Notes under the pieces: model-generated | Seen by the model: the letters and a program-made list of their open reading frames with translations, nothing else | The model's database searches: none | Told to the model about the DNA's origin: nothing | Shown here: positions 1,410-28,039 of the stretch, in pieces | How positions within the stretch are numbered: the first letter of the stretch is position 1 | Layout: each line of letters starts with the position of its first letter | Assembly: GCA_977862235.1 (NCBI GenBank) | Contig: OZ374558.1 | Span: 1,674,001 to 1,738,000 of the forward strand | DNA length: 64,000 nt | Reading direction: 5' to 3' | Source of the DNA: Dudresnaya verticillata | Taxonomy: Eukaryota | Translations under genes and position numbers: made by a program

Positions 1410-1534
1410 CACCGTCACGGTTGGAAGAAGCAGCCGTCGAAATCCGCTACGGTAGGAATTCGGCTGTACCGACAACCCGTTACGGAATATTGGATAGACA
1501 AGCAAGAACAACCGTTGTGTTCCGTTAAGGTATC

Positions 1535-7000: not shown

Positions 7001-8325
7001 GGAATCAAAGGTTTATGAAACTTTTCCCCGCTAGTGGACCTTTGGAGTTTGTCGCTATCGACACTCTCGGGCCACTTCCGAAGACAAAACGGGGTTATGT
7101 CTACGTTCTGGTAATAACCGATCGGTTCTCTAAGCTGACGCGCTGTATTCCGTTACGGACAACAACAGCCGTTGTGGTGGCGAACGCCTTTCTGGACTTT
7201 TGGGTTTATGCGTATGGCGCACCCCAATTTGTCCTAACCGATAACGGACCGCAGTTTACTGCTACGTTCTTTGACTCGGTGTGTTCCTTACTCGGAGTCA
7301 GGCGCCTATTAACCGCTGCCTACCATCCGCTGACAAATGGGCAAGCTGAGCGATTTAATAAGACAATCGCCCAGTTTTTGCGCCATTACGTTGAGGATCA
7401 TCACTCCGGTTGGTATTTGTACCTGCAACCGTTGACGTATGCGTACAACATGCAGGTACACCGTATTACGGAAACAACGCCATTTGATTTGGTGCTGACA
7501 CGCCACCCATCGGACATGGTTGTACGAGGGGCTCCTGTCGAGCATCAAGAAACCGTTACGGAAGGGCGTATGATCCCAGTGTTACAGAAGCGGAGCACCA
7601 TGCGCCGTTTACGGTATGCGCTCCAGGCAGCGCGCATTAAGCAGACAGTAGCCCAGCAAAAATCCAAGGCACTGTTTGACCGTAAGGTGCGCTTTAGGCC
7701 CATAATCCGTAGCGGAGATCAAGTCTATGTCGACCGGCCGCCCCATAACTTGCGTCCTGCCGAACGCCGTGAGCGGGACCGATTGGAAGGTAAACCGGAT
7801 GATGTGGGTGAGGTGGCTCAGGAAATGAAGAAACTTCTTCCGCGAGCCACGGGGCCTTATGAAGTGGAATCCGCAACGGAACATGTGGTTACAATCCGCA
7901 AGGAAGGGGTATTGATCCCAGTAAGCATCGATCGCATCACGAAAGTTCTGATCGGAGTTGCGGTTCAGCCGGCGCCCTTAACAGTGCCGCCTGTCGCGCC
8001 ATCAACCGTTTACGGTGAAGTAATGCCACATCCAGAAGGTACGGCAGTAACGCCTACTCCGTCAACGGGCATTACACCCTCCGTAGCGGAACCCTTACAA
8101 GCCGATACGGAATATGTGATCGACAAGATTGTCGGTCACCGCGACGAACCTACCGGGATGACCTATAGAGTCCGCTGGTATGGTTACCCTCCGGATCAGG
8201 ACACTTTTGAGCCCGCGGAGGAGTTGCCGCAGAATTTCATCTACCGGTATTGCAAGCAAAAGAAAAAGACCTCCGGTAAGGGTAAGCCACGGCGACGTGC
8301 TAATCCAACACGTCACTCACCGTAA
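3987..8325 (+). pseudogene. pol: E1 pol: aspartic protease, RT, RNase H, integrase, chromodomain (several stops and frameshifts)
   Basis: Protease LDSGAGPNLI. RT RFCVDYR, MPFGLKNA, YLDD. RNase H TDA, EKECLAVV. Integrase H..GH..C..C, TDNGPQF, GQAERFN, GPY. Chromodomain YVIDKIVGHR...YRVRWYGY...TFEP (~8113-8260). Confidence 0.95.
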
Positions 8326-8425
8326 CGGACAGCTGGAGTGTTGGGGTGTGAGAACACACAATGTTTATCGCAAGCTAAGGTCGAGGCATAATGGAGACCG
8401 TTAAGGAGATCGTCGAACTGTAACT

Positions 8426-11271
8426 CTAAGAGTTACGGCGACGCCGCTTCGGAGCAGGGGCAACTATATCTTCCTCGTTGCTCCCCTGACCCGTTCGTAA
8501 GCCGGGTTCCCCACTGGGATCAGATTGGAATACGCGCTGCGTATTGTCTCCCAAGACGCGAATCGCATTATCCATGCGCCGACGCTGACGACGGACCACT
8601 GCGCGGAGATGAATCACCTTTTCCATCAGCCCCTCCGCTAAGGTTAGCGTTTCCTGAACGGATCATGGCAATGGGAAGCGCTGCGTACGGCAAATGCCCC
8701 GTAGCGCCTGTGACCCACTTTTGGTAGCGGCTAAATGAGCCGGAACCGTAACGGGGGGATCCTCATCTTCTTGAAACTCTACCTGCGGGGAGATCTACGG
8801 CTTATCCCTAACCCCGGCTTCGATTGAATGCTCCGTTGAGGAAACCACCAATACGGATGGTCCCGACTCGGGTGAAGGTACGTCCTTCCGCAGCGGTGGA
8901 TTCGTGTCCTTCTCTGTCGAGGCGATATATCTTTTCCGTAACGGTTCGGGACTTGACGCGGGGACCGAGGGCTTGTCACCAGTCGCCCCAACACTTGGGC
9001 GCTTTGCAGCCACTTCCGATACGGTGATCGGTGCCTCACTCACCGCTGGTGTGGGAGTGGGCGCCAACAGCGGAACACTTGGCGGGGGCGGTTCGGCGGC
9101 TGCAGGCATTTGCGTCGCAGGAGACAGTGCCGCCGGCACAGTATCCGGCGCTACTTCCGAAACGGTCTGCTCCTTTGAGGCCCCCTTCTCGGATGGTGCC
9201 GCAGGCTTGGGCACCGCCATAGTAGACGCAACCACGCCTATAGGCGTTGGGGCCTTATCCGATACGGGAGTAGTATTCTCACGATCTACATCGCGCGACG
9301 TGGGTGTAGCGACCACCGGAAGGATTGGAGCGGATTTCTTCTCGATACCCGCTGCCATTGATGCGACGGGCATGACCTCCTCCTGTTCTTCCAAGAAGGG
9401 GTCAGCTTCTTGCTGCCTCACCATAACGGAATCGCGCGGGTCGATTGTACGCGAACGCCCCGCTGCCTCCTGACAGCCCCCAATCTTCAGCCCCGTCCAA
9501 ACCATCACGGTACGCATCCCTTGGTGCTTGGTGAGGCGCATAGCCCCGATGGGCCTGCACCTCTAAGGCCAACCATTCCGGACGCGGATCTTCTCGATGA
9601 AGGAAATATGGCTCACCCACTCCGGGCCTAAGCGGGGGCACCGATAGGAAACGGTCCTCATCCCAACTATACCCCAAGAAGCCCGGAGTGCGTAGCCAAT
9701 CCTGCTCTCCGTGTACGGATAAAAGACGCTCAACCTGATGGAGAGGGTACGCCGACCCCGTCACCAAATCGGCTACGCCGACTTGGCGAATTAGGGCGAT
9801 CACCGTTACGGGAAGTTGAAAAATACGGCCACAGTATCCTCCGGGCAGGTCATCCTCATCCCGTGGGAAGCATCGCCAGTCGGCTAACTTGGTATTATAC
9901 CGTACTCCGTAATAGGCCACCTGGAGCCACGAGAAGAGCACCAGCATGGCCCATTCCGATCGGAAGATGCGCCACAGTACATCGAGCTGATCTTGATTCG
10001 GGGGGCGCTCTCCGTTCGGACGTTTGTGATTCCACTCCCGTTCGGTGAGTAGGTCCGCCGAAAAGTATGCCACGACGGAAGGCGTGGGGACAGACAACCA
10101 ACGGGTCACCTCATAACGATCCTACCATGACGGAGCTGTAAGGTACAATTCACGACGCACCAGATACGGAAGATGGAAGAACTCCTTAGTGTTTCAAGTA
10201 TGCAGGATTGGCGAGCCAACTTGCATTCCGTCACGGGAGCGAGTTCGCAAACGGTGTTCCGTCGCGGCATCGTCCTTCCACCCATCGGCATAGCGGAACC
10301 AATATACCGACTGGTCATAGGGGCGGTCAAAGCAAATGAATTGCACTCCGACCGGCGCACCCCGGAGACGGAAACCTTTGGCCAACAGGTGACTGACCTT
10401 TGCGGTATATCCTACCTCCCCATGGCAGCGATACCACAACAAATCCGAAACGGTAGAGGTCAGCGCTTGACAATAGCCATGCACCCATCGGCTTTGCCAT
10501 ACAAATTCTCTCCGATTCGGAACAACGCCAATGCGTTGATTCGCCTTAGGGCTGCGCCATGACGGCCTTGTACCTTCTTGCTTCCACGACGGTTGGATAC
10601 TTCTCGATGAAGTAGTCCACCGTCATCGGGGGCTTAATCTTCGCCCTCTCCGCATCGGTTCTAGCCGGGCGCCCCGCGCGATGATCAAAGTGGTGCCCCG
10701 GCCAATAACCACTCGGGGCAGGAACCTCTCCGTCACGGGTATGCACCACCGGCCACCAAGGCCCTGGTGCAGGTGGATTGATTTGCGGGGGCCCACGCAT
10801 CCGTCTCGGTGTACTTGATGAAGGATGTAGACTAGCCACCATCCTACGACTCGGCGTCGATACCGGTGTCGATGGTGCCCGTAACGGAATGACCGGTAGG
10901 TCTGCCAAGCTGAGCTCCTCGCCACCACGACGGAATGCATCATCACGGTCCTTGGTTGGCGCCTCTCCGTCACGGTGGGTCGCTGCACTCCCTGGTAGCG
11001 CGGTCCTTGTGGCTGCGCTCGCAGCAAACCGATTCGGATCATAGGCCGACCACCCTCGGCTCGCTGATGGAGCCGGCGAAGGTTCCGTCACGGCAACGCT
11101 CGTACGACCGCCCATTGCGGGTCGCGTCGCTGCCGCCGAGGAAGAAGCCGGCGCTTGAGTCGAAGCATCCGTAACGGTTAGCGCGCCCTGCGCCCTAGTC
11201 GTGGATGCCGCGCGGGAACGCCGTGTCGGTTGAAAGGGCGACGGTGAGCGCTTGGTTTTCTCCCCTGACAT
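8426..11271 (-). pseudogene. E1 antisense extra ORF (disrupted), unknown protein: low-complexity N-terminus, conserved globular core, Ala/Pro/Thr-rich tail, C-terminal basic NLS-like PAPKRRRR
   Basis: Collinear minus-strand ORF pieces 10546-11271 (ATG 11271), 10194-10484, 9402-10109 (same frame as 10194-10484, with two in-frame stops), 8795-9541 and 8426-8626. The core aligns by eye with the E2 antisense ORF. Confidence 0.75.
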
Positions 11272-11396
11272 GGTGGGAGAAGCGCGCAAGAAGAGGAAGG
11301 ACTGATGAGAACACTTCCGTATCGGTTGTGTGTGTTCGTGGGTGGGGAAGCGATAGCGATCCGCTACGGTGGGCGCCCGAGGACGTGGCGCCATTT

Positions 11397-11407
11397 AAGG
11401 AGGGGGG
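11397..11407 (+). promoter_or_regulatory. E1 polypurine tract
   Basis: AAGGAGGGGGG, 2 nt before the 3' LTR. Confidence 0.85.
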
Positions 11408-11409
11408 TC

Positions 11410-12029
11410 TGTGGTGAAGTGAGCAGTAGCGCGCATGCGGCACGCCGACGGCGAGCCAGCCGTAACGGGTGATGTGGCAATACACCGCGCTGATGATCTG
11501 GCAACGTGTAACCGTCTCGGATGTTGTGCGCATTGCTGTACGCTGGTCCGCATTGCTGTACAGCAGTGTAGCGCACCAACCGTAGCGGAGTATTTGTAGT
11601 ATTTATTCTTTATTTTTAGTGAGTATCTGTGCAGTGTGTAGAGTAGCGCGCCAGCCAATGAGAATGCTGCGCAAGTCCTTTTCGGAGATTGGGACCAGCA
11701 GGGCCGATTCCACCATGGGTCCAGACCACTAGGGTCTGGCCCCCACGGACCGGACGGCTCGGTGCCACCCTGACTTGTATATCAGGGCGGCACCATAGCG
11801 GCTCCTAAGGCAAACGGGTAAGCAACCTTAGCCCAATCCTGTACGGTTTTCCCCGCACCGAGCCCGTTGCGGTCTACCACCACCACCGTTACGGAGTCCG
11901 TCCCGGCACTTGTACCACCCCCTCGTCTGTTGCTTCCTACCACCCCGTGGAGGTAGTGTTGCTCTCGTCCGTTAAGGAAAGTCAGGCCAGCTGTCCGTCT
12001 CGGAGTTCGTGGGTTTTCACTACACCACT
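11410..12029 (+). repeat. E1 3' LTR (620 bp; ~55 bp shorter than the 5' LTR near 11935)
   Basis: TGTGGTG...CACCACT; direct repeat of 712-1386 with scattered substitutions and one internal deletion. Confidence 0.93.
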
Positions 12030-12511: not shown

Positions 12512-13421
12512 TGTGGTGCAAAACGTCTGACACGATAGACCGCCGAGCAGTTCGTGGCTCGGTGGGTAGCTGCGCCCTTGGCGAGAGGTGGTCCCGCCGT
12601 GGGCGACTTGGTGGTAGAGCAAAGGAACACGCCTTGGGCGGACTGTAGACGACCGAGGCGGAAGGTGTGAAGGAAGGGAAAAGGAAACAGAAAGGGAACA
12701 CGTCAAGGACGATGGTAGACGTGGAAGCACGGGAGGTAGACGCTTAGCCGTGGGCAGCGGTAGGATACGCGCGTGCGGAACGGGGAAGTCTGGACCAAGG
12801 CCGGCTTGCCCGGGCGTTTACTGTTACGTCTGGGACGGCTTACCTAAGTATAGTACGGCGGTGCGGCGGCGGCGGTGCGTGTGCGTAGCGCGGGAACTCG
12901 GGACACGTGTCGTCCCGAGGCGCGTCTGACAGACCACCGGTTGCATGCAGCCGCGCGTCTGACAGGTTGCCGTGCAACCCCCTGTATAGGTGCTTACACA
13001 CACACGTGGACGCGTGGGCCTTACAGCCGTGCGTGCGCGCGCACTGTAGAGCGTGCGCATTAGATCTAATCCGATACTTGTCTGATCCCGATCCCATCCG
13101 GATCGGGCCAGCAATGCGAATACCCGCAGCATTACAGACGCGTATCTTACAGCTTAGGCGATCCGGATAACCAATCTGGATACCGGATCCGGATCCCATC
13201 TGGATCCGTATTACAGTGCCCCGGGGCGCCACGTCGGGCCATCACCGTACAGTGCCCGCGTGGCGCGCGGCGCGCAGTGTGCGCGCGCGCCCCAGTGAGC
13301 CGGCGATGACGTGTTCGCGTGCCAACGGCGGTGGTGAGCGCCGGTGGCGGGTTCTCCGTCGGTCGACGTATTTGGTCCGCCCACTTTCAGCGAAAAAGAG
13401 CTCACCTCCCCTTGCACCACA
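12512..13421 (-). repeat. E2 3' LTR (910 bp)
   Basis: TGTGGTGCA...TGCACCACA termini; repeat of 24870-25779 and 51328-52236. Confidence 0.95.
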
Positions 13422-13424
13422 CGA

Positions 13425-13433
13425 CCCCCCTCC
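13425..13433 (-). promoter_or_regulatory. E2 polypurine tract
   Basis: Minus strand GGAGGGGGG, 3 nt before the 3' LTR. Confidence 0.8.
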
Positions 13434-13857
13434 AAAACGCGAACACGACCCGACCCTCAACCTGCTGCCGTGCGCTCTCCCGTCGCGTGCCTGCCAACTT
13501 CCGCGCCTTGCGAGCGAGTCCCCGCGCCTTCGCGTATTGTGTCGGTGCGCCCGCGTTTACGCTGCCCCGACATCACCGCCCGTGGCGCATAACGTTGTCG
13601 TTGACGTCTATCGTATATCCCTCGCCTGGGGCGTTGCAACTTAATCGTCATCGGCGTCGTTTGCTTTTGGCATCGCCATTGGCGCAGCAGCTGAACGTCG
13701 TTGACGTGGGTTTCGTTTCCTCGCCTAAGGCCTTACAACAGTAATCGCCTTCGACGCACGCTTCTTGAAGCTTTCGCCAGTGGCGCAGAACACGAGTCGT
13801 CTTTGACGTTTGTACAAGCATCACCTTTGGCGTTAACATATTCTCGTCGTTGACATC

Positions 13858-16158
13858 ATGCCGATGTTCAATGGCATGCAGGTGGCGGCGCCCTCGGCTG
13901 CGCCGGTGTACGCTTCGCCGATCGACTTCGTCGGAAAGAATCCTCGCGATCACGCGCATTTCTTCGCGCGGGCCCCCTGGTTTGAGCAGGAGGCCCTGCG
14001 CGAGGAAGAATTGGTTGCCCATCACGCTACTAGCGGTTTCTTGCCGGGGGCCTGCCCCTCGGCGTCGTCTGGACGTTGGAATGGGAGTTACGCTGCGCCG
14101 TTCCTGCGGAATGGCTTTGGGTGCGAGCGGGACAGTCGCGTGCGGACGTCCACGCGCAGTTCGTCTCAGACGTGTATCGTCGCTTCACGCGGTATCCGGG
14201 GTCGACGTTAACGCCGCCCTTGTTCAATTATGATGCGGGACAGTATCGCACAGCCGGCGAAGCCGAATATGGTGCTCGTCTTGGGACGTTATCGCTCAAA
14301 CACGTTAGTGTGTCGATTGAGCCTCGCGTGTTGGGAGAGGCCTACCTGTTAGGCGTACGCTTGAAAGCGGATTTTCGTTACTTGCATCGTACGGGTACGT
14401 TCTTTTGGGAGCGTTGTATCCGGTGGGAGTGCGAGACGCGTCGCCGAAAGGGCGTATTCGTACCTTACCAGGACATGCAGGTCGATCGCATTGAGCGTAG
14501 TAAGTTACCGTTTTGTTTCGTGAAGGTACTGCCTGTATGGCGAGAGTTTGAGATATGCGAGGGTTTCTCCGTAGAGCTTCCTCCGTGTGTCACGTATCGA
14601 GCTGATGACCGACCCCTATTCAAGGTATTGGATCGTGTTTTACACGGAGTGGGTCGCCAATGTGGTGTATGCGTGGTTATGGGAGGTGTATGACACCTTC
14701 CGTATGTACCACTTGCCTCCGCGTGTGGTGGCTCAGCTTGGCAGCCTCGACTTGGTAGAAATATTTGGCGGGTCCCGGAACGCCGAGGAGTTCTGGAACC
14801 TGCGCGCTGTGGCGGATGAGATCGACTGGAACGACCCGGCAATGGTGCCGTATGCGAACAACCGCCGTAAGGCGAACCGTCCGCGCTTCGCGATGAGTCG
14901 GACTCACTCCGTCTGTGGCGATTGGGTCCATTATAACCCGTGGACTAAGCGTCGTACGACGAAGAACATTGCGGAGCGCCATCGCAAAACGGACCGCTTC
15001 ACCCCGGGTAATCACCCGCGTGGTTTGCGTAAGAGCTGCGACTTTGTCGGTGATTTTCCTCCGCATCTGAGCGCCTTAATGGCCGAGGAGGATGCGTTTA
15101 ACGCCGATGGCGGACCGGAGAACCCGTCTGGGACGGACATTGCTGCGCCTATGGCGGTTGAGTCGACTGCCGAGCCTGCGCCCGCGTCTTCGGCTTTGCC
15201 CGGAGGCGCTGTCGGTGGCGGTGGAGTGCCAGCTGGCCTGCCAGCTGTTGCTCCTCTGGACCTTGCGGCTCCCGTCGCTGACGATGATGGTGATGCCGTT
15301 ATGGCGACGCCAATATTGGAGTCGGCTCCGCCGACCGTGACGCCTCAAGGCAAAGCATCAAACATCGCAGACGGTTCTGGGGGTCCAGCTTCGGTGCCGG
15401 TTCGGACCGAAGAACAGCGCCGCACCGTGCTTGCGTTATTGCAAGCGGCAGGCGTCGCTACTAGCGGTCTGAGCGGCTCACCCACTGAGTGGATGAGCCA
15501 ATCTTTGTCGGCTGGGGTCCCACCTCAGGGTGGGCCCACGCCGAAGTCGACTAGTGTCATAGGTTCTGCGTCGAAGGACGGTGTGGCAGAGAAGCCTTCG
15601 TCGCCTAAGGCGAATGGTCCGGCGTCTAAAGACGTGAGTATGACTGTACCGCCTGTAGCGAGCGAAGCGAATGCCGATATAGCGTCGTTGACGGTTCCAA
15701 AGGGGCCAGGGGCTCCTGCGTCATTGACTGGTGTTGGTTGGTTGGTTAACAGCGCCGAAGGCGAGTGAAGAAGCGACGCCAATCAAGGCGGTTTCTGAAC
15801 TGACGCCAAAGGCGGTCGACGAGTCGTTGATTACGCTTAAAGCGGATGGGGCTATGCCCGCGCCTAAGGCGAACGATGGCTTGAGCTCTGCACCCGTGGC
15901 GGTTGTTATTGCTTCATCGCCTTTGGCGGATATTGTCGCGACGACGTCGAAGGCGATTGATGAGTCGCCCATCTCGCCTGCGGCGCCTGTTATAGTCACT
16001 CCGGCGGTTGCGGTGGCAAGGCCTTTGCGGTCCGCCCGGCTCCTGCCGTGAGTGTACCGTCGAGGACGGAGGACGACCTCTATGAAGAGGCGTTGCGTGA
16101 GTCCGCCGAAGGCGCCGTGGCTGTACCACCCGATTCGTCTGCGACGAAAGAGTCTTGA
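13858..16158 (+). pseudogene. E2 antisense extra ORF (frameshifted), homologous to the E1 antisense ORF
   Basis: Collinear ORF pieces 13858-14211, 14076-14693, 14587-15768 and 15731-16051. A globular Trp/Tyr-rich core is followed by an Ala/Pro/Ser-rich tail. Confidence 0.78.
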
Positions 16159-17462
16159 TGTCGTTTGAGCAAAGGATAGCGGACGCGAGGTGCGTATTGT
16201 GTTGCCCTTCGGCTCCCTTGCGGGACCGATGAGCGGGGTATTCCCCTTCGTCTTTGACGATTAATGTAGCTGTAGTGGTCGATTGCTAGGGCGTGGGGTT
16301 GTCCCCATTTGTTTTTAGCCCAGTAAACTTCGGCCATTGTCAGCGTCTTTGTGTGTCACGTTTCGCGTTGGCCCTTAGGGTGTGACTTGTGATCCACTTT
16401 CGACTTTGCGTCGTGTTCTTGGTTGCCCACTACAGTAACGTTGGCGTTTGGTGCCATTGGCCTTAGCCGTGCGTTGGCACTTGGCTCTGTTTGCCCAGTA
16501 GGGTCCGCTGTAGTAGCGTTGTTCTTTGTGTTTCACGCGCGGCGTTGGCGTATTTCCGCTTACTTAGCGTTTTGTTTTTGTAGTTCATGTGTCGCACTGC
16601 GACTTGGGCGTGGTTTGTTGGGTCACTGCACCTTGGGCGTGGTTTTTCGGCGTCCTCGACGACGGTCGCGAAGGCGGTGAGGTAGGTTTGGCGCCTCGGC
16701 GTTGCCGCCCCTTTCGTCTTCGACGTTTCTCGTTGTGGGTAGGGTAGAGTTGTCGGTCGCGCTCGCGCAACTGCGCGGCGGCCGCAGGCAGCGGCGGAGT
16801 CGTTGGCGATTTGTTGGCGCGTCGTGCACGGAACCCGCAGCACCTGCGTCTTCGACCACCTTCCCCCCCCTTCGGGGGTGGGTTTGTCGGTGCGCCCCTT
16901 CTCGGAGAGTTACGTCGGAGACGTTCGATGGGTCTGGCGCGCGAGACCGTGGGCGGCAGGGTGGCGGTCCCAGGTACTTGGCCGTAGGACGAGGCACGTC
17001 TCGACGTCGGAGACGGTTGTTGTGCGCTGCCACTTTGCGCCTGTCGTCGCTGGTGCTCGTAGCACCTGCTCAGCCACTTGGCATAATTGCGTTCGTCGTG
17101 CGTTGACGGCGGGGTGGTGCGCGCTGCCGTGTTTGGAAATTAAAATTGGACCCATGTCTGCCTCCTATTACCCGAGGGGCGCCGGTGGCGGATCTTGATT
17201 TGCAATCTGGATCACTGTCAACAGCGCACCCATCCAGAGGTTCCGTATGGGGGCTGCTGCGAGGTGGCGTGCGCGAGGCTGTCTATGACGCAACGACTTG
17301 CGTCCGCGTTCGTCCATGGCGTGCACACGTGGTTGGCGCTGTCGCTCTGGCGACCGCGTCCACAGGCTATGGGTTGAGCTTCCGCGCCTTTGGTGATCGT
17401 AGGTCGAGCACGCGGTCTCGATCGTCCGTCCATTCGCTTCCAGCGGTATTTCCGGATTAGGG

Positions 17463-20400
17463 TTAGCCGCGCTGCGCGTCGTCGACGTTTGGCGGCAGCT
17501 GCGTACGTTTTCGACGGTGGTATCGTGTGACGTGGGAGCGCGGCAAACTGGAGACTGGCTCCCAGGTGTTCGCTGAAGCGGGGTATCCAAACCACTTGAC
17601 GCGGTAGAGGATCTCATCACCATCCGCCTATGCGTGCGACTCTATGCGTTCAATCACGTATTATTTTCCGCTCACAGCGTTCGGCTTGGACATGGGCCTG
17701 TCCAGCGCCTTTGGCGGTTTGTCTCGTTGCGTGATGGGCGTCTGTTCCAGCTCGGCGAAGCGTACTCGACGAGTTGATCGCCGGAGGCGTTGGCCCTGGG
17801 CCTGGGACGCTCGATCAGCGGTCAGTGGATTGTTGCGTCTTGAGACGAGTTCATCGCTTGCAGCGCCTTGCTTCGTGCTTGCACGGTTAACGTCTTCGAT
17901 ATCGGATGCGCTTTCAGCGGAGTCATTGTTCTCATTCGGCGGTGCCGTAGCGACGTGTTCCAAACTGGTGCGAACCCCTGGGGTACTGTCGTCGTTGGAG
18001 ACGGATTGTGAAGCGCGGTCGTTGGGATCGGCGGCGAAGGGCGAAAGCTCTGCCAACCCACGGCTGCGTGACGCGGTGATCGTACGCTCTTGCGGATCTG
18101 CCGCAGTATGCGAAGTGTCTGCGTCCTCTTCCGGGTCCGCTGGTGGCGTGCTTGGGGTAGTCGTCCCTTCGTCGTGTGACGTGGGGGCGACTGCTCCCTG
18201 CTCCTCAGGCGGGCCTGGTGGTACGACGATTGGAGGGGCCGCCTGACCGGTGGGGTCGGCGCCCAGACCACGCGGTCTCGGGACAAACGTTCCCGCTCAT
18301 CACATCCCTTGTCGACGGTTACTGTTTCGTTATCAACGTGAGTTACCCGGTATGGTCCGTCCGCCACTGGCGCCAGCTTATACTTACGCTCTGCGCGATC
18401 CGTGCTCCCGCCTCGGGCGAAGTATTCCTTACGTACGAATACGAAGTCGCCTACGGCGATTGTTTCCTTCGATTTCCTTAAGCGGGTATCGAAGTTTCGT
18501 TTGTAACGTGCTTGAGTTTTCTCTAACGACGCTTTAGCGGTTCCCATCAGTGCGGCCAGCCAGGTTCGCCACTTGGTGTAGTATTGCCCCGCGGTGGGTA
18601 CGCTTTCGAGCGACGGTTCCGCTTCGAGCGACAATGGTCGTGGTGGCTTCGACAGCACCAATTCAAACGGAGCGAGATGCGTGGACGAATGCAACTTTGT
18701 GTTGTATGCGAACGTCAAGGCATCCGTGAACAGGTCCCAGTCTCTCGGATGATCCGCAACGTAGTGACGCCGCGAGGCCAGGATAGTTCGATTGAATCGT
18801 TCTACCTGGCCATTGTATTGCGGATGGTACGTCGTGGTGAAGAGATTCTCCACTCTCAAAAGACGGCAGATATCCTGAAACAGCTTAGCCACGAACTGTG
18901 GTCCGTTATCGGACAACAGTTTCTTGGGGGGGCCGTACAAGAAGACCCAATGTCGTACAAATGCCTTAGCGATTTCCAATGCCGTAATACTACGCAGTAG
19001 GACCGTCCGGACCAGCTTCGAGAAGCGGTCCACAATGACGAGTAGGAACTTGTTTCCTCGCTTCGTGCGTATGAGTTCGCCCAGGATGTCGATCGATACG
19101 AACTCGAGAGGCTCGGTTGCCGGGAACAACTTCAATTGCTTGGTGTTCTTTCGCAGCAATACGCGATTCTTAGCGCAAGTTACGCAGTTGCGGACGGTTG
19201 CATAGCAGTCCACTGGCATCGATGGCCAATAGTATTCGCGTCGAAGCGTATGATACAACTTACGCCCCTGGGTGCCCTGCCAACTTGGCGTGGTGCCGGA
19301 GGTGGAGTAAGCGAGCGCGTAACGCGTAGGGTACGACCACTTGCGGACGGACTTCCACTGTTCGGACCAACAGGCCCTGTTCATCCGTTGCGAACGGTAA
19401 TATGATTCCGTCATCCAGACGTTTCTTGATATCGTTACAGTACTTGTCATCGCCTTGGGCGTGTACCAACTCCTCATGCGTCACTTGACGAAGGAATACC
19501 TCATCCGCCGGTGGCGTGTTGTTGATCAACACTTGGTCGAACTCTTCGAACTCTCGTTCGGCGAAGTCGACCTCGCCTTCGGCGTCTGAAAGATCGTCCT
19601 GTGACGTTTGATGGCCGTCTTCGACGTAGCTTCCGTGATAGCACGGTATATCATCGTCAATGGGCTCGACGGTTTCTCCCTTCGTCTGTAGACGCGAAAG
19701 GGCATCTGCCTGGGTATTCAGGTACCCCTTTTTGTACTTCACGACAAAGTCGAACTCGAGAAGGCGAAGGCGCCACCGCATTAACCGTCCAGAGGGGTCG
19801 CTGATTTCCATCAGCCACCTCAACCACGAATGGTCCGTATGGACTGTGAACGACTCCATCTGGAGGTAAGGTCGCAGCGTCATGACGGACCATACTACTG
19901 CGAGGCACTCCTTTTCGGAGACCGAGTAGTTACGCTCTGGAGCGGTGATCGAGCGGGACCAGAAGCCGAGGGGCTTACGTTCCCCGTCGGGCTGCGTCTG
20001 AAAGAGAGCGCAGCCGACCTGATACTCGCTTGCGTCACAATCGACAGAATAGGGGAGACCCTGCTGTGGTAGCGCCAGTATAGGCGGATGAGTCACGGCC
20101 TCGACGAGCGTGCTGAACGCTTTGGCTTGTGTCTCATCAAACGGTTGTAACCGGAAGTCCTGTTCCTTCCTCAGCAACTTGTTGAGGGGGGCAGCGACAT
20201 GCGCGTATCGCGAGACGAACCGTCTGTAGACGTTACAAAGACCGAGGAAACTCCGTAGCTCCTTCTGATCCCGTGGATGCTTGGCTTCGCGTAGCGCGGC
20301 AGTGACAGTTCGGTCAACTTCTAACCGTCCTGGACGTATGACGTGTCCTACGCAGTTGACGGTCGGGGTGAAGAAATCACACTTGGTCAACTTCGGAGTC

Positions 20401-22187
20401 ACCCCGGCGCGGTGCAATGTCGAAAGGATCTCTTCAACATGACGGAAGTGACTGTCGATGTCGCTGGAGAAGATTATTACGTCATCGAGGTAGACGAGGC
20501 ACGAACGCCACTTGTAACCAGCGAGCAGTATGTCCAACGTTCGTTGAAACGTAGCGGGTGCGTTCGTGAGACCGAATGGCATACGCTTATAGCGGAACAG
20601 TCCGGCGTGGCACGTGAACGCAGTCTTATCGCGGTCTCGCGGATTGATCGGCACTTGCCAGTACCCACTGTTACAGTCTAGGGTGGTGAAAACGTTTGCT
20701 TCCCCTAGACTGTCGATGCATTCGTCGATACGCGGCAGCGGGTACGTGTCCCGTATGGTTACTGCGTTTAAACGACGGTAGTCCACGCAAAAGCGGAGGG
20801 TCCCGTCCTTCTTGGGGGCGAAGACCACTGGTGACGCCCACGGCGATTGTGCGGATTGGATAACCCCTTGACGCAGCATGCGTTCCACTTCCGCTTGAGC
20901 GAGTTGTCTTTGCTTCGGCCCCGCTCGGTAGGGCGGGGACGATATTGGTCTAGAGCCGGGAAGCAAGTCGATGTAGTGCTCCGTGGTTGAGATTTCTCCC
21001 AACGAACCGTCCCACATAGACGAATACTTGCGCAACATCTCCTCAAGCCGGCCTTGATGCTCGGCGGGGAGATGTCCCAGGTCCAAATCGTCTACTGACG
21101 GAGGTTTGGCAGTGGTTGCCTCGATAGACTTCGTGAAAGTATCCGGCTGTGCCGCAGTGTTATCATTCGTTTGAAAACGGAAATCTTGGTTTGTCTTCTC
21201 TTCCTCGGCTTGTTCCTCGGTGAGGCCCAAAACATCGGCTAGACTTACGTGACTGGGGAACACTGCTGTCGGATGTGGTAACGCCGTCGCGACGACTTGG
21301 GCCTTGGCCAGCGCCTGCGGGCGGGGAGAGAAGTTGGCAACCAGAATGCGAAACGCTTTTAGCGGCTCCACTTGAGCAATACCGTTCGTAACGGCCAGAA
21401 CTTGTTTGTCGTACAGCTTTCCGAACGGTTGAATCGTGATGATGCCGGCGCGCTCGGTGGTCACCGATACCCATTGCTGCGCCTTAGGCGGGATGATCGC
21501 GCGCTCGGCGACTCGGATCTTGGGTAACGTCCTCCCTTCGGCCTTGCCGTATTCCTGTTCCGTTGGTAACGGAGGGTACGACGGGGGTCGGCGCAGCGGG
21601 CGGCGCGTTATAGGGACGCGAGTCCCGTCATCCAATTCAACCTCGCGACTTCGCGGATATATTGCTTCGACGAAGCGGTCGCAAAAGTCGCAGCCGAGTA
21701 TAACCGGCGCAGCGAGTCGTTCGCAAACGATCAGTTCCAACTTGACGACTCTCCGTCCTAGACGAACGACCAGGTCGATGGTGCCTCTTGTCTGGATCGC
21801 CTTATTGTTTGCGTCGGCTATGACGGGGAGGCTCTTTGCCACGATGCGCGATTGCGCTTCTAGCGGAATGTCGTCAATGCGAATGAATTTCGGACCAGCC
21901 CCCGTGTCGAGAACAGTGAGTTTACGTGCCAAGGTACTAACGGTTGCGCCCAAATCGGCGTACACCTTATAGTTCCTCTTGGCCATTACGAACAACTGCC
22001 CCCGCGTTTGGGGGGGCTGGTACCTTCGCCATGGGTGTTTTAATGACGTCTGCGACGACTCTATCCGCCCGTTGGCGTCTTTGGTAACTAACTTCGGGCC
22101 CTCCTTCCGTGTCAGCACCTGAGGCCTAGGCCTCTCGTCGTGGTGCGACACCCCAGTGTCAGGAGTTGGTGCCCGAGTTAGTTTTTC
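17463..22187 (-). pseudogene. pol: E2 pol: protease, RT, RNase H (open 19260-22151), integrase (frameshift ~19260), chromodomain (17463-17660, with stops)
   Basis: LDTGAGP; RFCVDYRRLN, MPFGLTNAP, YLDD; DCDAS, EKECLAVV; SDNGPQF, GQVERFN, GPY. Chromodomain YVIERIESHA*ADGDEILYRVKWFGYPASANTWEP translated by hand. Confidence 0.95.
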
Positions 22188-24742
22188 GCCTGCGGCGGTG
22201 GTTGTGGCGCTTCATAGCGATTGATCATCGTCGGATGACGTTCTGCAGCGTGCGGCATGGGTCCGCCTCGTGGCGATTGTGGTCGTGCAGCACGGCGAGC
22301 AGCGTCGCGGGTCGCGCGTTCCTTGCAACGTACATACGCATCAGCGCGGACACCAGCCTTCTCGGCTTCGGTTAGTCCTTCATAGTTGGTAATAACCTTT
22401 ATGAAGTCGCTCATGCAGAGGAAGCAGTCCGGCGCGATGTGTCCGCGGGCGTAGCATTGGTGGCATACCAGCTGCCGACGCGAGTCTTGACGGGGCGGGC
22501 CTCTGTCCTGACATCCGGGCCTTTCTCGGTGGACGTGAGGAGCATACTCGGAATAGGGGACGCGTGGCGCTGGTACGACCGAGCGCCCAAAGGCGAGAGC
22601 AGGGTCTATATCCCTTTCGTCTTCTTCATCGACGCAACTGTCCGTCGGTAGAGCCGAGGTTGGCACCGACGCTTGCTCGTCTGCCAAGTACAGATCGCCT
22701 TCGGCGTGTGTTTCCATGTCATCGACAGGGCGACTAACGTCTCGAAACTCGACGGAGGACTCCGCTATCATAGCGCGCACTCCAGGCTTGGTGCCTCTAG
22801 TCTGTGGACGCAGTACCCCTCGGGCATCGCCGATGGCGGATCGCGGTGTGCGTACGGCTTGAGCCGGTGTCAATAGGTCACGTCGGGCTGACGCGGAACC
22901 GGCCCTGCCGTGTCGTGCGCGGTTGGCATCCCCTTCGTCTTGTGCGAAATAGACCAGCCGCTCAAATGACAACTCCGCCCTTGGCGTTTCTTCTCGGAAG
23001 CGAGCGACCAGGGACCTGATCGACGGGCCTAACCCGTCGATGTACAGCGTCATCTTTTCCCAATCGGGATATACGTTACCGCAACGAATACACGCACCGG
23101 CTAGCCGCATCCCATAGGTCGTCTCGTCCTCGCCTTGCTTTTGGGCAGTCGACCGTAGGGCGAGGACAGCGTCCCTGATCGCTGCTGGCGTAGCATACGT
23201 ACGGAGGAGGTACTGTACCGCCTCCGGATACGAAAACACCCCGTCGCGATGGCGAGAAGACGTCGACTTGACGGAGCGGAATTGCGTGGCTGCCGTACCT
23301 CGCAACAAGTACGGCAGCGCGACGAACGCTTGGGCTTCGCTCATCTCCAGCGTATCGGCTTCATCTGCGTAACGCGCCAGAAACTCGAGGACCATGACGT
23401 GGTCGCTGCCGTTGAAGGCGGCGTCCTTCATGGTCAGCTCCAAACGCTTGATATGGTCCTTGACCTTACCCGTATCGCGCCCTGAGCGTTTTTGCCCTAC
23501 GTCTTTGAGACGGTACGTCCTGTACGATGATAACTGATCGAAAAGGGGGTTGGAGGGGCTTAGCTCCTTCAACCCCTTGAACCGCTTTCCGCGAGGTCTT
23601 GCGCCACTGCCGAGAGTTGGAAAGTCGTCGTCTTCAGACGAAGAGTCTGATGACTCTCCGTCACTTGACGAGTCCGAAGAGGACGAGGATGAGTCCCCTC
23701 GTCGATGACGATTCTTCTTCCGTCTCTGACGCAGCTTGCGTTGGCGTTTCTTCCGATCCTTACGTCTGTGACGATCTTCGCATAAGCTCTCGTCACCCGA
23801 CGGTGGACCATTGCGCCACTTGGCGGTTTCGAGACGCTCTAAGCGAGTCATAAGTCGCTGAAAGCGTTCGCGTGAGCTAAGCTCGGAATGCGAATGAACC
23901 GTTACTGCCGACGGTGGTTGTGTACCCTCGCCTTGGGCGTTTTGGTTCGTCAATAGACGGTCGAGGTCGGATCGAAGTCCTTGTAGGGCGCCGTTTCGAT
24001 CCTCTTCCAACGTCTGTAGACGACTTGCGATTCCTCCGACACTGTCGTCCAGCAACCCGGCGAATCGAGCGAGCATCGCATCGTCCTCTAAGACGCACAC
24101 CTCTCGGATCCGTTCGTGTGGTATCGTTACGTTACTCGCGCGGACGGCCGAGGGTGACGCCGTTGGCGGTTGGCTTTCGCGGTTTGACCGGTCGGGCGTC
24201 CCTTGCGCCCTTTGACTTGGCGACTTCGGCTTAGCCGGCGAACACCCGGCACTGCCGTGGGGAGTGGGGCAACATGCCCCTTGTGTCAATGGTTCGTCAG
24301 CGACGTTGCGCTCCGCGGAGCGCCCTTGATCGTCGTTGACGTGGTTGGTTGGTTGATCCGGAAGTTCCGGTTGTCCCTTGACGATGTCGGCTTGTGTTCC
24401 GTCTACGACGTCCTGTTGCTCGGCTTGTACTGTATCAGCCGAGTCAACATAGGAGCGGTAGGTGCGGAGGGCCGATCCCTCGGGGACTGAGGTGCGGACG
24501 ACGACGGGGTTGTGGCGCGTCGGCGGGGGAGGTAACTCTCCTCCGTTGAGCGACGCGTGGGAGCCTGCGTGGCCGTGGCCCGGGGGTAGCGTTGGGAACG
24601 CCGACGCGATCTCGGGGCTCACGAGGCGCCCAGACCTCGTTGTCATCCGCTGTAGCGACCGTTCTGACGCGGGTACACTCCCAGGCGTCGAAGACGGTCT
24701 TCTTGAACTTGGGCCTCGCGACGGCGGCGGTCGTGAGGCCAT
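22178..24742 (-). CDS. gag: E2 Gag polyprotein (854 aa)
   Basis: Uninterrupted ORF after the PBS, with CCHC zinc knuckle CHQCYARGHIAPDC. Homologous to E1 gag. Confidence 0.9.
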   Translation of the reverse strand: MASRPPPSRGPSSRRPSSTPGSVPASERSLQRMTTRSGRLVSPEIASAFPTLPPGHGHAGSHASLNGGELPPPPTRHNPVVVRTSVPEGSALRTYRSYVDSADTVQAEQQDVVDGTQADIVKGQPELPDQPTNHVNDDQGRSAERNVADEPLTQGACCPTPHGSAGCSPAKPKSPSQRAQGTPDRSNRESQPPTASPSAVRASNVTIPHERIREVCVLEDDAMLARFAGLLDDSVGGIASRLQTLEEDRNGALQGLRSDLDRLLTNQNAQGEGTQPPSAVTVHSHSELSSRERFQRLMTRLERLETAKWRNGPPSGDESLCEDRHRRKDRKKRQRKLRQRRKKNRHRRGDSSSSSSDSSSDGESSDSSSEDDDFPTLGSGARPRGKRFKGLKELSPSNPLFDQLSSYRTYRLKDVGQKRSGRDTGKVKDHIKRLELTMKDAAFNGSDHVMVLEFLARYADEADTLEMSEAQAFVALPYLLRGTAATQFRSVKSTSSRHRDGVFSYPEAVQYLLRTYATPAAIRDAVLALRSTAQKQGEDETTYGMRLAGACIRCGNVYPDWEKMTLYIDGLGPSIRSLVARFREETPRAELSFERLVYFAQDEGDANRARHGRAGSASARRDLLTPAQAVRTPRSAIGDARGVLRPQTRGTKPGVRAMIAESSVEFRDVSRPVDDMETHAEGDLYLADEQASVPTSALPTDSCVDEEDERDIDPALAFGRSVVPAPRVPYSEYAPHVHRERPGCQDRGPPRQDSRRQLVCHQCYARGHIAPDCFLCMSDFIKVITNYEGLTEAEKAGVRADAYVRCKERATRDAARRAARPQSPRGGPMPHAAERHPTMINRYEAPQPPPQAKN

Positions 24743-24849
24743 GATACAATCGTAGAGTTGCTTGAACGTCGTGGACGATTAGCGACAAACGTCTGAAGAC
24801 GGAGGGTCGGACGTCGCACGACGGAGTAACTCGTTGAAACGTAGCACAA

Positions 24850-24867
24850 TTCTAGGTCGGGAGACCA
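24850..24867 (-). promoter_or_regulatory. E2 primer-binding site (tRNA-Tyr-like)
   Basis: Minus strand TGGTCTCCCGACCTAGAA, 2 nt from the 5' LTR. The complement reads TT-CTAGG-TCGGGAG-A-CCA, the shape of a tRNA 3' end. Confidence 0.82.
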
Positions 24868-24869
24868 GA

Positions 24870-25779
24870 TGTGGTGCAAAACGTCTGAGACGATAGACCG
24901 CCGAGCAGTTCGGGGCTCGGTGGGTAGCTGCGCCCTTGGCGAGAGGTGGTCCCGCCGTGGGCGACTTGGTGGTAGAGCAAAGGAACACGCCTTGGGCGGA
25001 CTGTAGACGCCCGAGGCGGAAGGTGTGAAGGAAGGGAAAAGGAAACAGAAAGGGAACACGTCAAGGACGATGGTAGACGTGGAAGCACGGGAGGTAGACG
25101 CTTTGCCGTAGGCAGCGGTAGGATACGCGCGTGCGGAACGGGGAGGTCTGGACCAAGGCCGGCTTGCCCGGGCGTTTACTGTTACGTCTGGGACGGCTTA
25201 CCTAAGTATAGTACGGCGGTGCGGCGGCGGCGGTGCGTGTGCGTAGTGCGGGAACTCGGGACACGTGTCGTCCCGAGGCGCGTCTGACAGATCACCGGTT
25301 GCATGCAGCCGCGCGCCTGACAGGTTGCCGTGCAACCCCCTGTATAGGTGCTTACACACACACGTGGACGCGTGGGCCTTTCAGCCGTGCGTGCGCGCGC
25401 ACTGTAGAGCGTGCGCCTTGGATCTAATCCGATACTTGTCTGATCCCGATCCCATCCGGATCGGGCCAGCAATGCGAATACCCGCAGCCTTACAGGCGCG
25501 TATCTTACAGCTTAGGCGATCCGGATAACCAATCTGGATACCGGATCCGGATCCCATCTGGATCCGTATTACAGTGCCCCGGGGCGCCACGTCGGGCTAT
25601 CACCGTACATTGCCCGTGTGGCGCGCGGCGCGCAATGTGCGCGCGCGCCCCAGTGAGCCGTCGATGACGTGTTCGCGCGCCAACGGCGGTGGTGAGCGCC
25701 GGTGGCGGGTTCTCCGTCGGTCGACGTATTTGGTCGACCCGCTTTCAGCGAAAAAGGGCTCGCCTCCCCTTGCACCACA
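24870..25779 (-). repeat. E2 5' LTR (910 bp)
   Basis: Direct repeat of 12512-13421 with TG...CA termini. Confidence 0.95.
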
Positions 25780-26589
25780 GTCCCTATCCCACTGTGTCGG
25801 CTTGTGTCTCTGATTTTGTGAGAGAGTTCTCGAGGCTCTCGTCCGCTGTTGTCTTGGTCCGTGAGCTTGCTGAGAGGTTGAGTGTTGTGCGTGGTGACTC
25901 TCGTTAAGTCAGGACCTCGTTGGCCTAGGGGAGCAGCCTCCAGTAAGATCCAGAACCTTGACACGGTTGGGCGTAGTTCCATTCCTGCAAGAGACTGGAC
26001 CTGTTCGTGTGGTGAACACTCGTTTTGAGTTAGTACCCATAAGGTGGACGTCTCGTAAGGATTGCACACTTCGTGTCTGTGTGCGCACGACACGAAAGGG
26101 CTGCTGAAAGACGCATTTCACCCGGAGAATCATATCCGGGGGCCAGGAGTCCGACTCCTAGGGGTGACTAGGTAGAACCTGGTGCCAGAACATCCCGCGT
26201 CAAAAAGACGTTCAACTATCAAGAATCAACTTTTCAACTTCAAATTTCAACTTTTCTTCTTCAGTCCAGGTGATCCCATCATCACCTGAGAGTTTCATTA
26301 CTCCAAGCGTGGGAGCTACTTGGCAAAGTGTGCTCCGCTTGTGACTGTATTATATTACCGACGGTGTTGCACGTTGAGGGACGGAGGTACCGACGCTTTG
26401 CCTAATGGAAGCGGTGGCGACGCACACACTAGCGGGAAGGGGAATTCGGCTACCAAGGCCATAAAGGGGGAAAACAAAAGGGGATACATGTCAAAGACGT
26501 ACATTGACGCGGAAGCGCGATCGTTGCAACGCGTAGCCAACGTCGGTAGCGGCAGTGACGCTAACGAGCGAAGGTGCGAAGTGTGAAGG

Positions 26590-26827
26590 TAGACCGGCTT
26601 GCCGGGGTTTACTGTGACGTCCGAGACGGGTTACCTAAGTATTACTACTGCTGCGTGGGCGACGGCGGTGGCGCTGTGGCGCGCGGGAACTCAGGAAACG
26701 TGTCGTTCCGTCGTGCGTCTGACAAGCGCCCTCGGAATGCAGCTGCGCGCCTGACTCATTTGCCCACGCCAGCACGCGCGCCGCGCTAATGCTTACACCT
26801 ACACGTGTTCACGCACCGCGCTTACAG
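26590..26827 (-). mobile_element. Diverged LTR relic related to the E2 LTR (true boundaries unresolved)
   Basis: Collinear similarity to 12795-13026: CCGGCTTGCC.GGG, TTTACTGT.ACGTC, TTACCTAAGTAT, GCGCGGGAACTC, CGTGTCGT, GCGTCTGACA, TGCTTACAC. Confidence 0.7.
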
Positions 26828-28039
26828 ACGCTTGGTGCCATTGTCCTCCGCTGCCCTGTGACACGTGCCACGTGTGCAAGTATGCCACGGGGTGCGGCAG
26901 CGTGACCCAGTAACTACACCTCACGCGTTCTCTCAACCCGACATTGCCGTCACTATCCGCTATGAGCGGGAGGTCTGGTTCTTGACCAAGCTGCCCGACA
27001 AAGTCGAATGACTAGCGCCATCGACGGAAACAGGGATCACGAGCGGGTTCGCGCCTAGAGCTCGATCCCAGTCGCCAAAGGCGCTAGAAACGTCAAAGAC
27101 GGGATCTATCCGTCTAGGACAATACAGAGCGCCAGTGGGGTGGGATAATTTGCACCATAAAACCGGACAAGCAACGGCTCGCGCTGAAGCTTGCCCCCAG
27201 CCTTTGCATATTTGCGATTCCGAGCACTACGCCCTGGAATGCAATCATCGCCATCTCCTTTTCCATGTCGTCTGAGATGCGGAACTTGTCATGCCGCCTC
27301 TTAAAGTTCGAGTGCGCTGCTGGAAAATTCGAATCCCCACGGGCCTTAACCTTGTTCAAACCCATAGTCTTCTGCCAAATCTAGACACGCACCTTGTCTA
27401 CAGCAACACCATCGCCAGGTACCCGGTTGGCATGCTCTTTGGGGTCCTTCTGATCCAGTGGACTGATCTGATTGTCGCATCCTAACTGCCCAGGAGTAGG
27501 GCTCCTATCCGCAGTACCACTCTCCTTTCCATCTCTCTCAGAGAATTATGAAACTCCAGGTAGTGACAACTGGACTACACGTTCCGAAGCATAGCTAATT
27601 GAGTTCAGCTCCGACATCATAATGGCATTCTGTTGAGTAATGCCATATACGGTATCCTGGAGACCAGAAACGCTTGTTTCCAGGACAGTCTGTGCCTGCA
27701 GCAGCTCTTCCACATACGCAGCCAGTTTGCCTTCCAGATTCGACGCATCTGCCCGGGTCGCAAGGGGCACCATCTCGTTAACAGCTTTGAAAACCGAGGC
27801 ACTCGCGCTTTCTCGTAAAGTGTACTGACCTCACTTTACCACCTTTGGAGTCAGTGTGTTGTAGACAGGACAACACACATTATTTCGAAATAATGTTGCG
27901 AAAGCTTCTCGATGTTGTTGTCAACGTCCTTTTTTCTCTACTCACGGGTCTCAGCCTTACCTTATCTACCACATTGGAAGTGCTGGAGAGCGAGTGCTCA
28001 AACTAGTATAACGGAACAGCTACAAACAATAAAAACAAA

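Follow-up and report, generated by a model that had tools for sequence, protein, structure and literature searches.

Single-stranded RNA viruses carry packaging signals in the form of many dispersed short stem-loops, which are read cooperatively by an encoded protein and are strand-specific, defined by their loop sequence and tolerant of G-U pairs. Amongst transposons, the VANC proteins of the Arabidopsis VANDAL elements are anti-silencing proteins for which both binding and anti-silencing have been shown (PMC5735166). As described there, their motifs are fixed, non-palindromic words (YAGTATTAY) in a common orientation, and they sit in tandem repeats outside the coding sequence of a DNA transposon (PMC5735166). 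Antisense open reading frames between pol and the 3' LTR are described for Retand (TRP28), maize Grande and rice RIRE2; by that account they are conserved across a gypsy lineage and DNA binding has been proposed, with their role not established (PMC11963269). HIP1 and its alternates in cyanobacteria are fixed, ungapped, genome-wide palindromes tied to methyltransferases, for which an origin through biased repair has been proposed (PMC4390886).

Here we set beside these systems an LTR retrotransposon, E2, of Dudresnaya verticillata. It lies in a window of 64,000 nucleotides (contig OZ374558.1, positions 1,674,001 to 1,738,000), to which all coordinates below refer unless a locus is named.

The E2 element and its inverted repeats

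E2 (12512..25779) is a decayed copy of about 13 kb with gag-pol on the minus strand. It is placed in the Ty3/gypsy class because it has direct LTRs with TG...CA ends, an internal primer-binding-site-like stretch and polypurine tract, and the order reverse transcriptase (RT), RNase H, integrase; after gag, the Pfam matches on the minus strand run RVT_1, RT_RNaseH, Integrase_H2C2 and rve. The 5' LTR (24870..25779) and 3' LTR (12512..13421), both on the minus strand, are 910 bp long and 97.25% identical. The primer-binding-site-like stretch (24848..24867), which on the minus strand starts with TGG, is 2 nt inward of the 5' LTR, and the polypurine tract (13422..13433, minus strand) adjoins the 3' LTR. 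Also on the minus strand are a gag-like ORF of 866 aa (22178..24778), a pol ORF of 983 aa for RT and RNase H (19260..22211) and a piece of the integrase ORF identified from its frame and Pfam matches (17822..19480). An accessory gene (13837..15768, plus strand) lies antisense between pol and the 3' LTR, in three broken frames (13837-14208, 14034-14693 and 14575-15768). No target-site duplication was seen at the E2 ends, where the flanking letters are GCGAG and GTCCC; a recombined or nested copy is a possible explanation. A solo LTR of the E2 family (51328..52236, minus strand; 96% identical) carries E2-type sites and has flanks, GAAAG and GAACG, that match in four of five letters. A diverged LTR-like relic (26251..27160, plus strand; about 71% identity over 287 bp) holds six sites of the E2 class. 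Rfam returned 0 matches in 12500-25800, and the only tandem repeats found in E2 by TRF are in the LTRs and are built of units other than the inverted repeat.

The sequence-only reading described the palindrome CGYC-NNN-GRCG in about 60 copies counted by eye, with at least five in each LTR. All 22 of the positions that it listed fit the pattern, and a regular-expression count gives 77 copies in 12573-25707 (96 in the whole window); the left LTR holds 6 of them and the right LTR 11. Other spacers are not equally frequent: for the same half-sites separated by 0 to 12 nt the counts are 3, 0, 5, 77, 28, 8, 9, 5, 1, 7, 6, 2 and 4, a spacer of 3 dominating and a spacer of 4 forming a genuine second class. 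GC or CpG richness as the source of the sites was rejected, since shuffles give counts far below 77 (dinucleotide, 3.7 +/- 1.8, maximum 10, n=200; trinucleotide, 4.4 +/- 1.8, maximum 8, n=60). The motif stands as a signal specific to E2 and to its spacer. As a fixed word it does not, CGYC-NNN-GRCG being a subset of CG-xy-NNN-y'x'-CG, a 4-bp stem with a 3-nt loop that recurs from 12573 to 25750. Y and R are complementary in 72 of the 77 copies (40 CGCC..GGCG and 32 CGTC..GACG) and mismatched in five, a feature absent from the sequence-only reading that alters how the motif is to be understood.

Counted over one LTR and the internal region, there are 119 perfect sites with a 3-nt loop, where 10 are expected, and 52 more with a 4-nt loop. 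The arms covary: among 255 CG-N7-CG sites, positions 3/9 are Watson-Crick in 158 (72 expected) and positions 4/8 in 153 (81 expected). Fifteen of the 16 possible inner dinucleotides are present, most commonly CC (34), TC (28), CT (13) and GC (10), and the words CGCC and CGTC account for 62 of the 119 sites. By simple arithmetic, multiplying the frequencies at the two stem positions reproduces these stem counts, a smooth distribution that fits one reader better than a few fixed words. Relative to control, internal G-T mismatches stand at 0.86x and A-C mismatches at 0.91x, against 2.47x for Watson-Crick combinations; among CG-bounded sites, sense-strand A-C mismatches reach 1.5x (21 sites). There is little excess of stems longer than 4-5 bp, and the next pair outward is depleted (20/119 versus 30.2 for 3-nt loops, 4/52 versus 13.2 for 4-nt loops). 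No loop word was found in E2, the most frequent loops occurring in 6 of 119 sites each, and there is a mild strand bias towards A in the loops when they are read on the gag-pol strand (137 A to 65 T, p 0.018). E2 has an excess of CpG (o/e about 1.3), the dinucleotide that forms the stem ends. Perfect 3-nt-loop sites number 13 in the 5' LTR and 9 in the 3' LTR, where a single difference from the 5' LTR disrupts each of four further sites.

The sites run through the LTRs, gag, pol and the antisense gene at about 8-14 per kb, or roughly one per 100 bp, and are as dense in coding regions as in the rest of the element; the rest of the window outside the E2 family has 0.3-0.4 per kb. A codon or protein effect as their cause was rejected by synonymous shuffling, after which the gag-like ORF has 4.8 sites instead of 27, the pol ORF 3.2 instead of 26 and the integrase stretch 18290-19340 0.9 instead of 11. 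The excess persists in all five ORF stretches of E2, in four of them in all three frames, and no amino-acid cost of the sites was detected in RT.

Neither even spacing (CV 0.99, like random) nor a 10.5-bp periodicity was seen in E2. Sites avoid lying closer than 18 bp to one another and their spacing peaks near 21 bp: the 19.5-23.5 bp bin holds 29 pairs, the two bins below it 1 and 9, and the bins above it 7-15 each. With 3-nt loops alone this pairing fails post-hoc correction (p 0.30), whereas pairs that include a 4-nt-loop site, which are independent of the data used to choose the 19.5-23.5 bp window, number 19 versus 6.0 (0 of 2000 jitters). It is absent from E1, L083-L087, L020, L037 and L080. 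Tandem duplication was rejected, since a stem is shared in only 8 of 37 close pairs and the TRF repeats are of other units.

Related elements and the antisense family

The gypsy element E1 (712..12028, plus strand), used for comparison only, adjoins E2 in the same host and has a different palindrome, CCG-N3-CGG (73 copies versus 7.2 expected), which has the appearance of a fixed site read in duplex DNA. Its flanking and inner A/T positions show no covariation (18/73 versus 26 expected; 33 versus 33.6). The likeness between the two motifs that the sequence-only reading had drawn is superficial, E1 having a fixed word and E2 stem-like covariation. E1 also carries a distant member of the antisense family of E2.

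A similar hairpin excess is found at 39 of 66 loci of the clade, with a loop length and fixed bases specific to each family; 27 fall below the excess threshold, and three loci outside the clade (L066, L122 and L153) show the excess. The codes include CG==/3 in E2, C===/4 in L085-L087, C===/5 in L084, a GASTC centre in L016, where GAGTC and GACTC are used alike, and the fixed CCG-N3-CGG of E1. In L083-L087, three positions each covary across all four bases and the loop consensus is reverse-complement symmetric. The outward pair is depleted in L083 (9/73 versus 20.1) and L084 (7/62 versus 17.2), with no such depletion in L020, L037 or L026. The loops of L026 and L037 are A-rich on the gag-pol strand, as in E2, the L021 family has G-T at 1.46x control, and L001 has longer hairpins with loops of mixed kinds, a geometry unlike that of E2. 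The hairpin pattern follows RT clades on a quick tree that is too coarse to show co-evolution.

Ten locus pairs, each locus used once only, were compared for conservation. Sites are intact between relatives in 217 of 528 cases (controls 262/1250), and two-sided changes are complementary in 71 of 125 (controls 103/336); in one pair, L021/L035, stem conservation is lower than in the control. One-sided changes between relatives give G-T and A-C in the ratio 119 : 134 (controls 365 : 381). Of 967 aligned sites, 3 have an inverted loop. In a shared-versus-singleton comparison across five copy families, sites and control loops behave alike.

The three pieces of the E2 antisense gene match the family profile with E values of 1.5e-12, 5e-53 and 6e-52. 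Searching directly with an E2 piece gave 0 of 161 candidates, and the unbroken homologue in L001 (7368-9716), the closest one among the examined loci, was needed to find the relatives. The family, uncharacterised and with 397 representatives, is found across the clade, and its structure model is confident (pLDDT 95.5). C-terminal basic runs of the KRKR type in the L083 and L085 proteins may be a nuclear signal. Pfam scans of the E2 pieces, four near homologues and 24 further members gave no family above cut-off, TRP28/PF04195 included, and there was no PDB sequence match and no usable Atlas hit. A fold search with the model gave no match at E<=0.001 in the PDB or viral libraries, and the highest VIA Z across 48161 chains was 2.6, in a comparison that barely tested the greater part of the model; for such a predicted structure, the lack of a fold match does not prove a new fold. 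The antisense gene is present in L006, L007, L009, L010, L048, L036 and L046 without a hairpin excess, and no alternative motif turned up in those families.

A proposed base-paired self-tag and its alternatives

Our preferred reading, which we put at a little under one half (about 0.45), is that the approximately 170 perfect 4-bp inverted repeats are a base-paired DNA self-tag bound by the antisense-encoded protein of E2. The arms would pair within each strand, as a hairpin or a protein-stabilised mini-cruciform, since a plain duplex read half-site by half-site gives no cause for the halves to covary. On their own the hairpins have little stability (mean -2.2 kcal/mol), so that a protein would be required to extrude them from the duplex. 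The molecule read is probably DNA, or both strands, since neither strand shows a clear preference for G-T and the loop preferences of relatives are strand-symmetric. A candidate reader with a footprint of about 20 bp could bind side by side. Amongst the least certain steps are the antisense protein as the candidate reader and the purpose, which by analogy with VANC might be family-specific self-recognition, for example to shield the element's own copies from silencing. Points against the self-tag are the families with the antisense gene and no hairpins, the 27 loci below threshold, the L001 geometry despite its antisense homologue being the closest, the A-rich loops, the limited occurrence of ~21-bp pairing, the raised sense A-C in E2 and G-T in the L021 family, the L021/L035 pair, the weakness of the isolated hairpins and the undepleted outward pairs of L020, L037 and L026.

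A broader proposal is more tentative and rather doubtful: that in red-algal gypsy elements an antisense protein of new fold reads mini-cruciforms by symmetry, geometry and a few fixed bases, coating the DNA of its own family at ~21-bp steps, with one code per family. If true, a DNA reader would test the match of two 4-bp arms largely regardless of their sequence. Should the self-tag be real, a selfish element would carry an identity code within its own coding sequence, by self-complementarity and not by a fixed word. That code would be read by the uncharacterised family above. Each family would then have predicted cognate substrates that bear on the long-open role of LTR-retrotransposon antisense accessory genes, and a small protein that reads symmetry in DNA would become available. 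Functional or not, the saturation of each family with its own perfect micro-inverted repeats is an evolutionary signature; no description of the pattern was found in titles and abstract starts from a mainly open-access literature.

The repeats might instead work in the transcript, as RNA stem-loops scattered along it that Gag or the antisense protein recognises for packaging, export or protection, in the manner of viral packaging signals or a Rev-like system. All parts of an LTR element are transcribed, 3-4 nt loops and side-by-side spacing would fit RNA too, and the A-rich gag-pol-strand loops of E2, L026 and L037, together with predicted pairing that is higher in sense than in antisense RNA (0.28 versus 0.17), point the same way. 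Yet only 25% of sites have a sense-RNA pairing probability above 0.5, E2 has no loop word, G-U is in excess neither in E2 nor in the one-sided changes between relatives, and the loop consensus of L083-L087 is the same on both strands. We consider an RNA signal unlikely. Less likely still is a mutational drive without function, in which RT or repair of the cDNA perfects near-palindromes by fold-back template switching, much as in the repair proposed for HIP1. This would explain the perfect Watson-Crick pairing in all frames, the near-uniform density and the RT-clade pattern; repeated correction would look like conservation, no amino-acid cost was detected in RT, and the shared-versus-singleton comparison does not separate sites from control loops. 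However, fold-back should lengthen stems, yet outward pairs are depleted, and it should invert loops, yet inversions are confined to the three aligned sites noted above; the fixed CG ends, the GASTC centre of L016 and the <18 bp exclusion with its ~21 bp peak are left unexplained.

An improbable alternative is that the antisense gene is unrelated and the sites serve a host factor, either hiding the element from a host enzyme by folding its CpG or single-stranded cDNA, or recruiting a host structure-binding protein. The CpG excess of E2, with CpG at the stem ends, and the antisense genes without hairpins favour this, but E1 and E2 share a host and differ in motif, other sequence in the window has only 0.3-0.4 sites per kb, and a geometry that varies by family is not demanded by one host factor. 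It is very improbable that these are ordinary duplex sites gathered from sibling families, in which several homodimeric protein variants would each bind a different fixed palindrome. The E1 motif has the look of such a site, and two words make up about half of the E2 sites; against this, nearly all inner dinucleotides occur in E2 in a smooth product distribution, and the all-four-base covariation of L083-L087 would require dozens of variants.

Comparison with described systems

Like the packaging signals of RNA viruses, E2 has many short potential stem-loops along its length; its stems, in contrast, show little or no G-T tolerance and no loop word, the mild A-rich loop bias remaining. With HIP1 it shares a short GC-rich palindrome far in excess of chance with lineage-specific variants (PMC4390886), whereas the E2 word is variable, looped and confined to one mobile family. 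The antisense ORF of the E2 clade has the position, orientation and lineage conservation of the Retand-type frames. It differs in that the TRP28/PF04195 domain is not among the Pfam matches of the proteins scanned, and the repeats are element-wide inverted repeats where tandem-repeat arrays are described for the Retand type (PMC11963269). VANDAL is a Mutator-like DNA transposon and E2 an LTR retrotransposon, and the E2 unit is a variable self-complementary stem within coding sequence, with no tandem arrays of the motif. What the two have in common, as far as VANDAL is described in PMC5735166, is an extra gene combined with a dense, short, family-specific motif that differs between related families.

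The CG-bounded inverted repeats of E2

E2, a retrotransposon at 12512-25779, has 910-bp LTRs that are 97.25% identical to each other. Its coding (minus) strand encodes gag, RT, RNase H and integrase and, together with the LTRs and PBS-like and PPT-like stretches, these identify it as a Ty3/gypsy element. No target-site duplication was seen at its ends and its ORFs are broken up over different frames; it is thus a decayed copy. Named eukaryotic matches to its RT, among the 120 relatives listed, came from Agarophyton chilense (a protein 62% identical) and, more distantly, from an arachnid (41%), which suggests a red-algal host. Each LTR also holds a cluster of GGATCC/GATC-rich short repeats (13159-13208 and 25517-25566).

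The sequence-only reading had found by eye about 60 copies of CGYC-NNN-GRCG in this element, a number it placed far above chance. A regular-expression search for CG[CT]C-N3-G[AG]CG bears this out, with 77 copies in 12573-25707 (96 across the whole window) against 3.7 in dinucleotide shuffles (maximum 10 of 200 shuffles) and 4.4 in trinucleotide shuffles (maximum 8 of 60), and all 22 positions that it listed fit the pattern. The excess exceeds every shuffle, which excludes GC or CpG richness as its cause. Nor are other spacers equally frequent: the same half-sites separated by 0 to 12 nt occur 3, 0, 5, 77, 28, 8, 9, 5, 1, 7, 6, 2 and 4 times, the next highest being spacer 4. Y and R are complementary in 72 of the 77 sites. 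The fixed word is a real excess but only part of a wider class, CG-xy-NNN-y'x'-CG. The pattern is real, broader than first described, and strange.

Covariation defines this class. Among all 255 CG-N7-CG in one LTR and the internal region, with expectations from the marginals, complementarity is found at positions 3/9 in 158 (72 expected) and at 4/8 in 153 (81 expected); at 5/7 it is at chance (57, 58 expected) and at the pair next outside it is not raised (57, 62 expected). Perfect sites number 119 in the same sequence, against about 10 in shuffles, and equivalent sites with a 4-nt loop 52, against 10.2. CG starts 119 of the 179 perfect 4-3-4 repeats of E2. The inner stem dinucleotides (CC 34, TC 28, CT 13, GC 10, CG 8, AC 6, TT 6, others rarer) have counts that, by our own arithmetic, lie near those predicted by multiplying the frequencies at the two positions. 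Site density is 7.8-14.3 per kb in each part of E2, 0.7 in E1 and 0.3-0.4 in the rest of the window. Synonymous-codon shuffling leaves far fewer sites than observed in gag (27 against 4.8), pol (26 against 3.2), integrase (11 against 0.9) and the accessory antisense gene (12 against 1.9), and the coding-region excess spans all reading frames (all three in four of five ORF stretches).

The motif had also been likened to that of the neighbouring gypsy element E1 (712-12028, plus strand), with different half-sites. The half-sites do differ, but the E1 palindrome differs in kind: it is a fixed word, CCG-N3-CGG (73 against 7.2, coding frames included), with a T-N-A centre and A/T flanks whose preferences do not covary. 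The integrase of E1 has a chromodomain, and the antisense family has a distant member in this element too. Positions 1-700 hold an additional LTR-like sequence that matches the E1 LTRs at about 72% identity, and a diverged LTR-like relic at 26251-27160 has CG-xy-N3 sites as in E2 with different stems and loops. Minus-strand ORFs at 49402-51578, with a weak RT match (E 1.6e-4), overlap an E2-family solo LTR (51328-52236) and are probably another retroelement interrupted by it. At 32000-64000 a unit of about 8.1 kb is present in three copies (94-100% identical); it includes a minus-strand ORF of 447 aa for which no Pfam match was found, and a short 16-bp tandem array.

Geometry and conservation among relatives

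RT-based scans fetched 159 loci, and 66 of at least 2 kb were placed in E2's clade. In 39 of these 66, against 3 of 84 others, perfect 4-bp stems are in excess (p<1e-6) with at least one loop length between 3 and 9 nt. Site geometry is specific to each family. A C=== stem has a 4-nt loop in L083, L085 and L087 and a 5-nt loop in L084; the L020 and L026 families have a 4-nt loop and a stem of any sequence; in L016 (1-9430) complementary variable arms flank a fixed GA(G/C)TC centre (22 against 1.3), used both ways round; and hairpins in L001, L021 and L082 are longer and mixed. In L083-L087 all four bases covary at each inner stem position, and loop preferences are reverse-complement symmetric. 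The excess-free families around L003, L018, L036 and L046 form a single branch in a quick RT tree.

Across ten locus pairs, each locus used once, 217 of 528 sites were kept intact, against 262 of 1250 long-loop controls, and two-sided changes were complementary in 71 of 125 cases, against 103 of 336. One pair shows the opposite conservation trend, and families without stem excess show no effect in this test. In a shared-versus-singleton comparison over five copy families, sites and control loops behaved alike. What is shown is that perfect micro-inverted repeats run through the whole element, differ in form from family to family and are conserved among relatives, some of their positions being fixed and others covarying.

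L082-L092 and L134, eukaryotic gypsy elements of the clade, were found in bins titled as bacterial genomes, most likely through binning contamination. L159 has a 10-bp tandem array in the form of a long inverted duplication (947-1200).

Pairing, spacing and a candidate reader

The arms of a site probably pair within one strand, and the pairing molecule would be DNA, or both strands. That the sites are instead RNA signals is unlikely. On the gag-pol strand E2 loops are rich in A (p 0.018), and predicted pairing in local windows, though modest, is higher for sense than for antisense RNA (0.28 and 0.17; DNA 0.39 on both strands), but the E2 sites have no loop consensus word and G-T pairs are not enriched, either in E2 stems with one internal mismatch (G-T 0.86x and A-C 0.91x control, perfect stems 2.47x) or among one-sided changes in the ten locus pairs (G-T:A-C 119:134, controls 365:381). 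In CG-bounded E2 sites with a mismatch the values are G-T 1.04x and A-C 1.51x. Isolated E2 DNA hairpins have a mean energy of -2.2 kcal/mol. Generation of the sites by RT or repair drive is rather improbable, since outward stem extension is depleted (20/119 against 30.2 for 3-nt loops, 4/52 against 13.2 for 4-nt loops) and loop inversions are infrequent (3/967). There is a small chance that the sites answer to a host factor, and a slighter one that they are fixed-word duplex targets of many dimers.

A DNA-binding reader with a footprint of about 20 bp, sitting side by side on the sites, could account for their spacing. E2 sites are rarely closer than about 18 bp, and 29 pairs fall at 19.5-23.5 bp, against 7-15 in longer 4-bp bins, a window chosen after the 3-nt-loop spacings had been inspected. 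For 3-nt-loop sites alone the peak is not significant after scan-wide correction (p 0.30); pairs including a 4-nt-loop site number 19 against 6.0 (0/2000 as high), and the pooled peak survives correction (0/500). Linkers of 7-12 nt between spaced partners are unrelated, and 8 of 37 pairs have a common stem. The peak of about 21 bp is missing from all three other site sets examined.

The candidate is the product of the antisense gene, which lies on the plus strand between pol and the 3' LTR and in E2 is broken into three frames; L001 has an intact 782-aa homologue. Iterated profiles detect the family clade-wide, E1 included (397 representatives at E 0.001). Its core is modelled as mainly helical (pLDDT 95.5, 146 sequences), with no match above Pfam cut-offs or in PDB sequences, Foldseek or VIA. 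In L012 the member at 5505-7580 and the RT are encoded on one strand, an arrangement that most others do not have. The gene is retained also by families without hairpins, which argues against a simple one-to-one link between the two. That this protein reads the sites and does so for self-recognition, as VANC does, is a guess, to which we give a probability of about 0.45.

Comparison with known systems

No description of this pattern was found among the titles and abstract openings of the papers that literature searches listed. HIP1, as outlined in part of PMC4390886, is a fixed word and genome-wide. The antisense gene is placed like the antisense ORFs of Retand and Grande but, as far as the excerpt of PMC11963269 describes these, differs from them in lacking TRP28. 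The mode of working proposed here resembles that of VANC proteins and their VANDAL transposons in Arabidopsis; set against the portion of PMC5735166 that describes these, E2 falls outside their class, being a retrotransposon whose motif is variable and paired and whose sites lie within coding regions.
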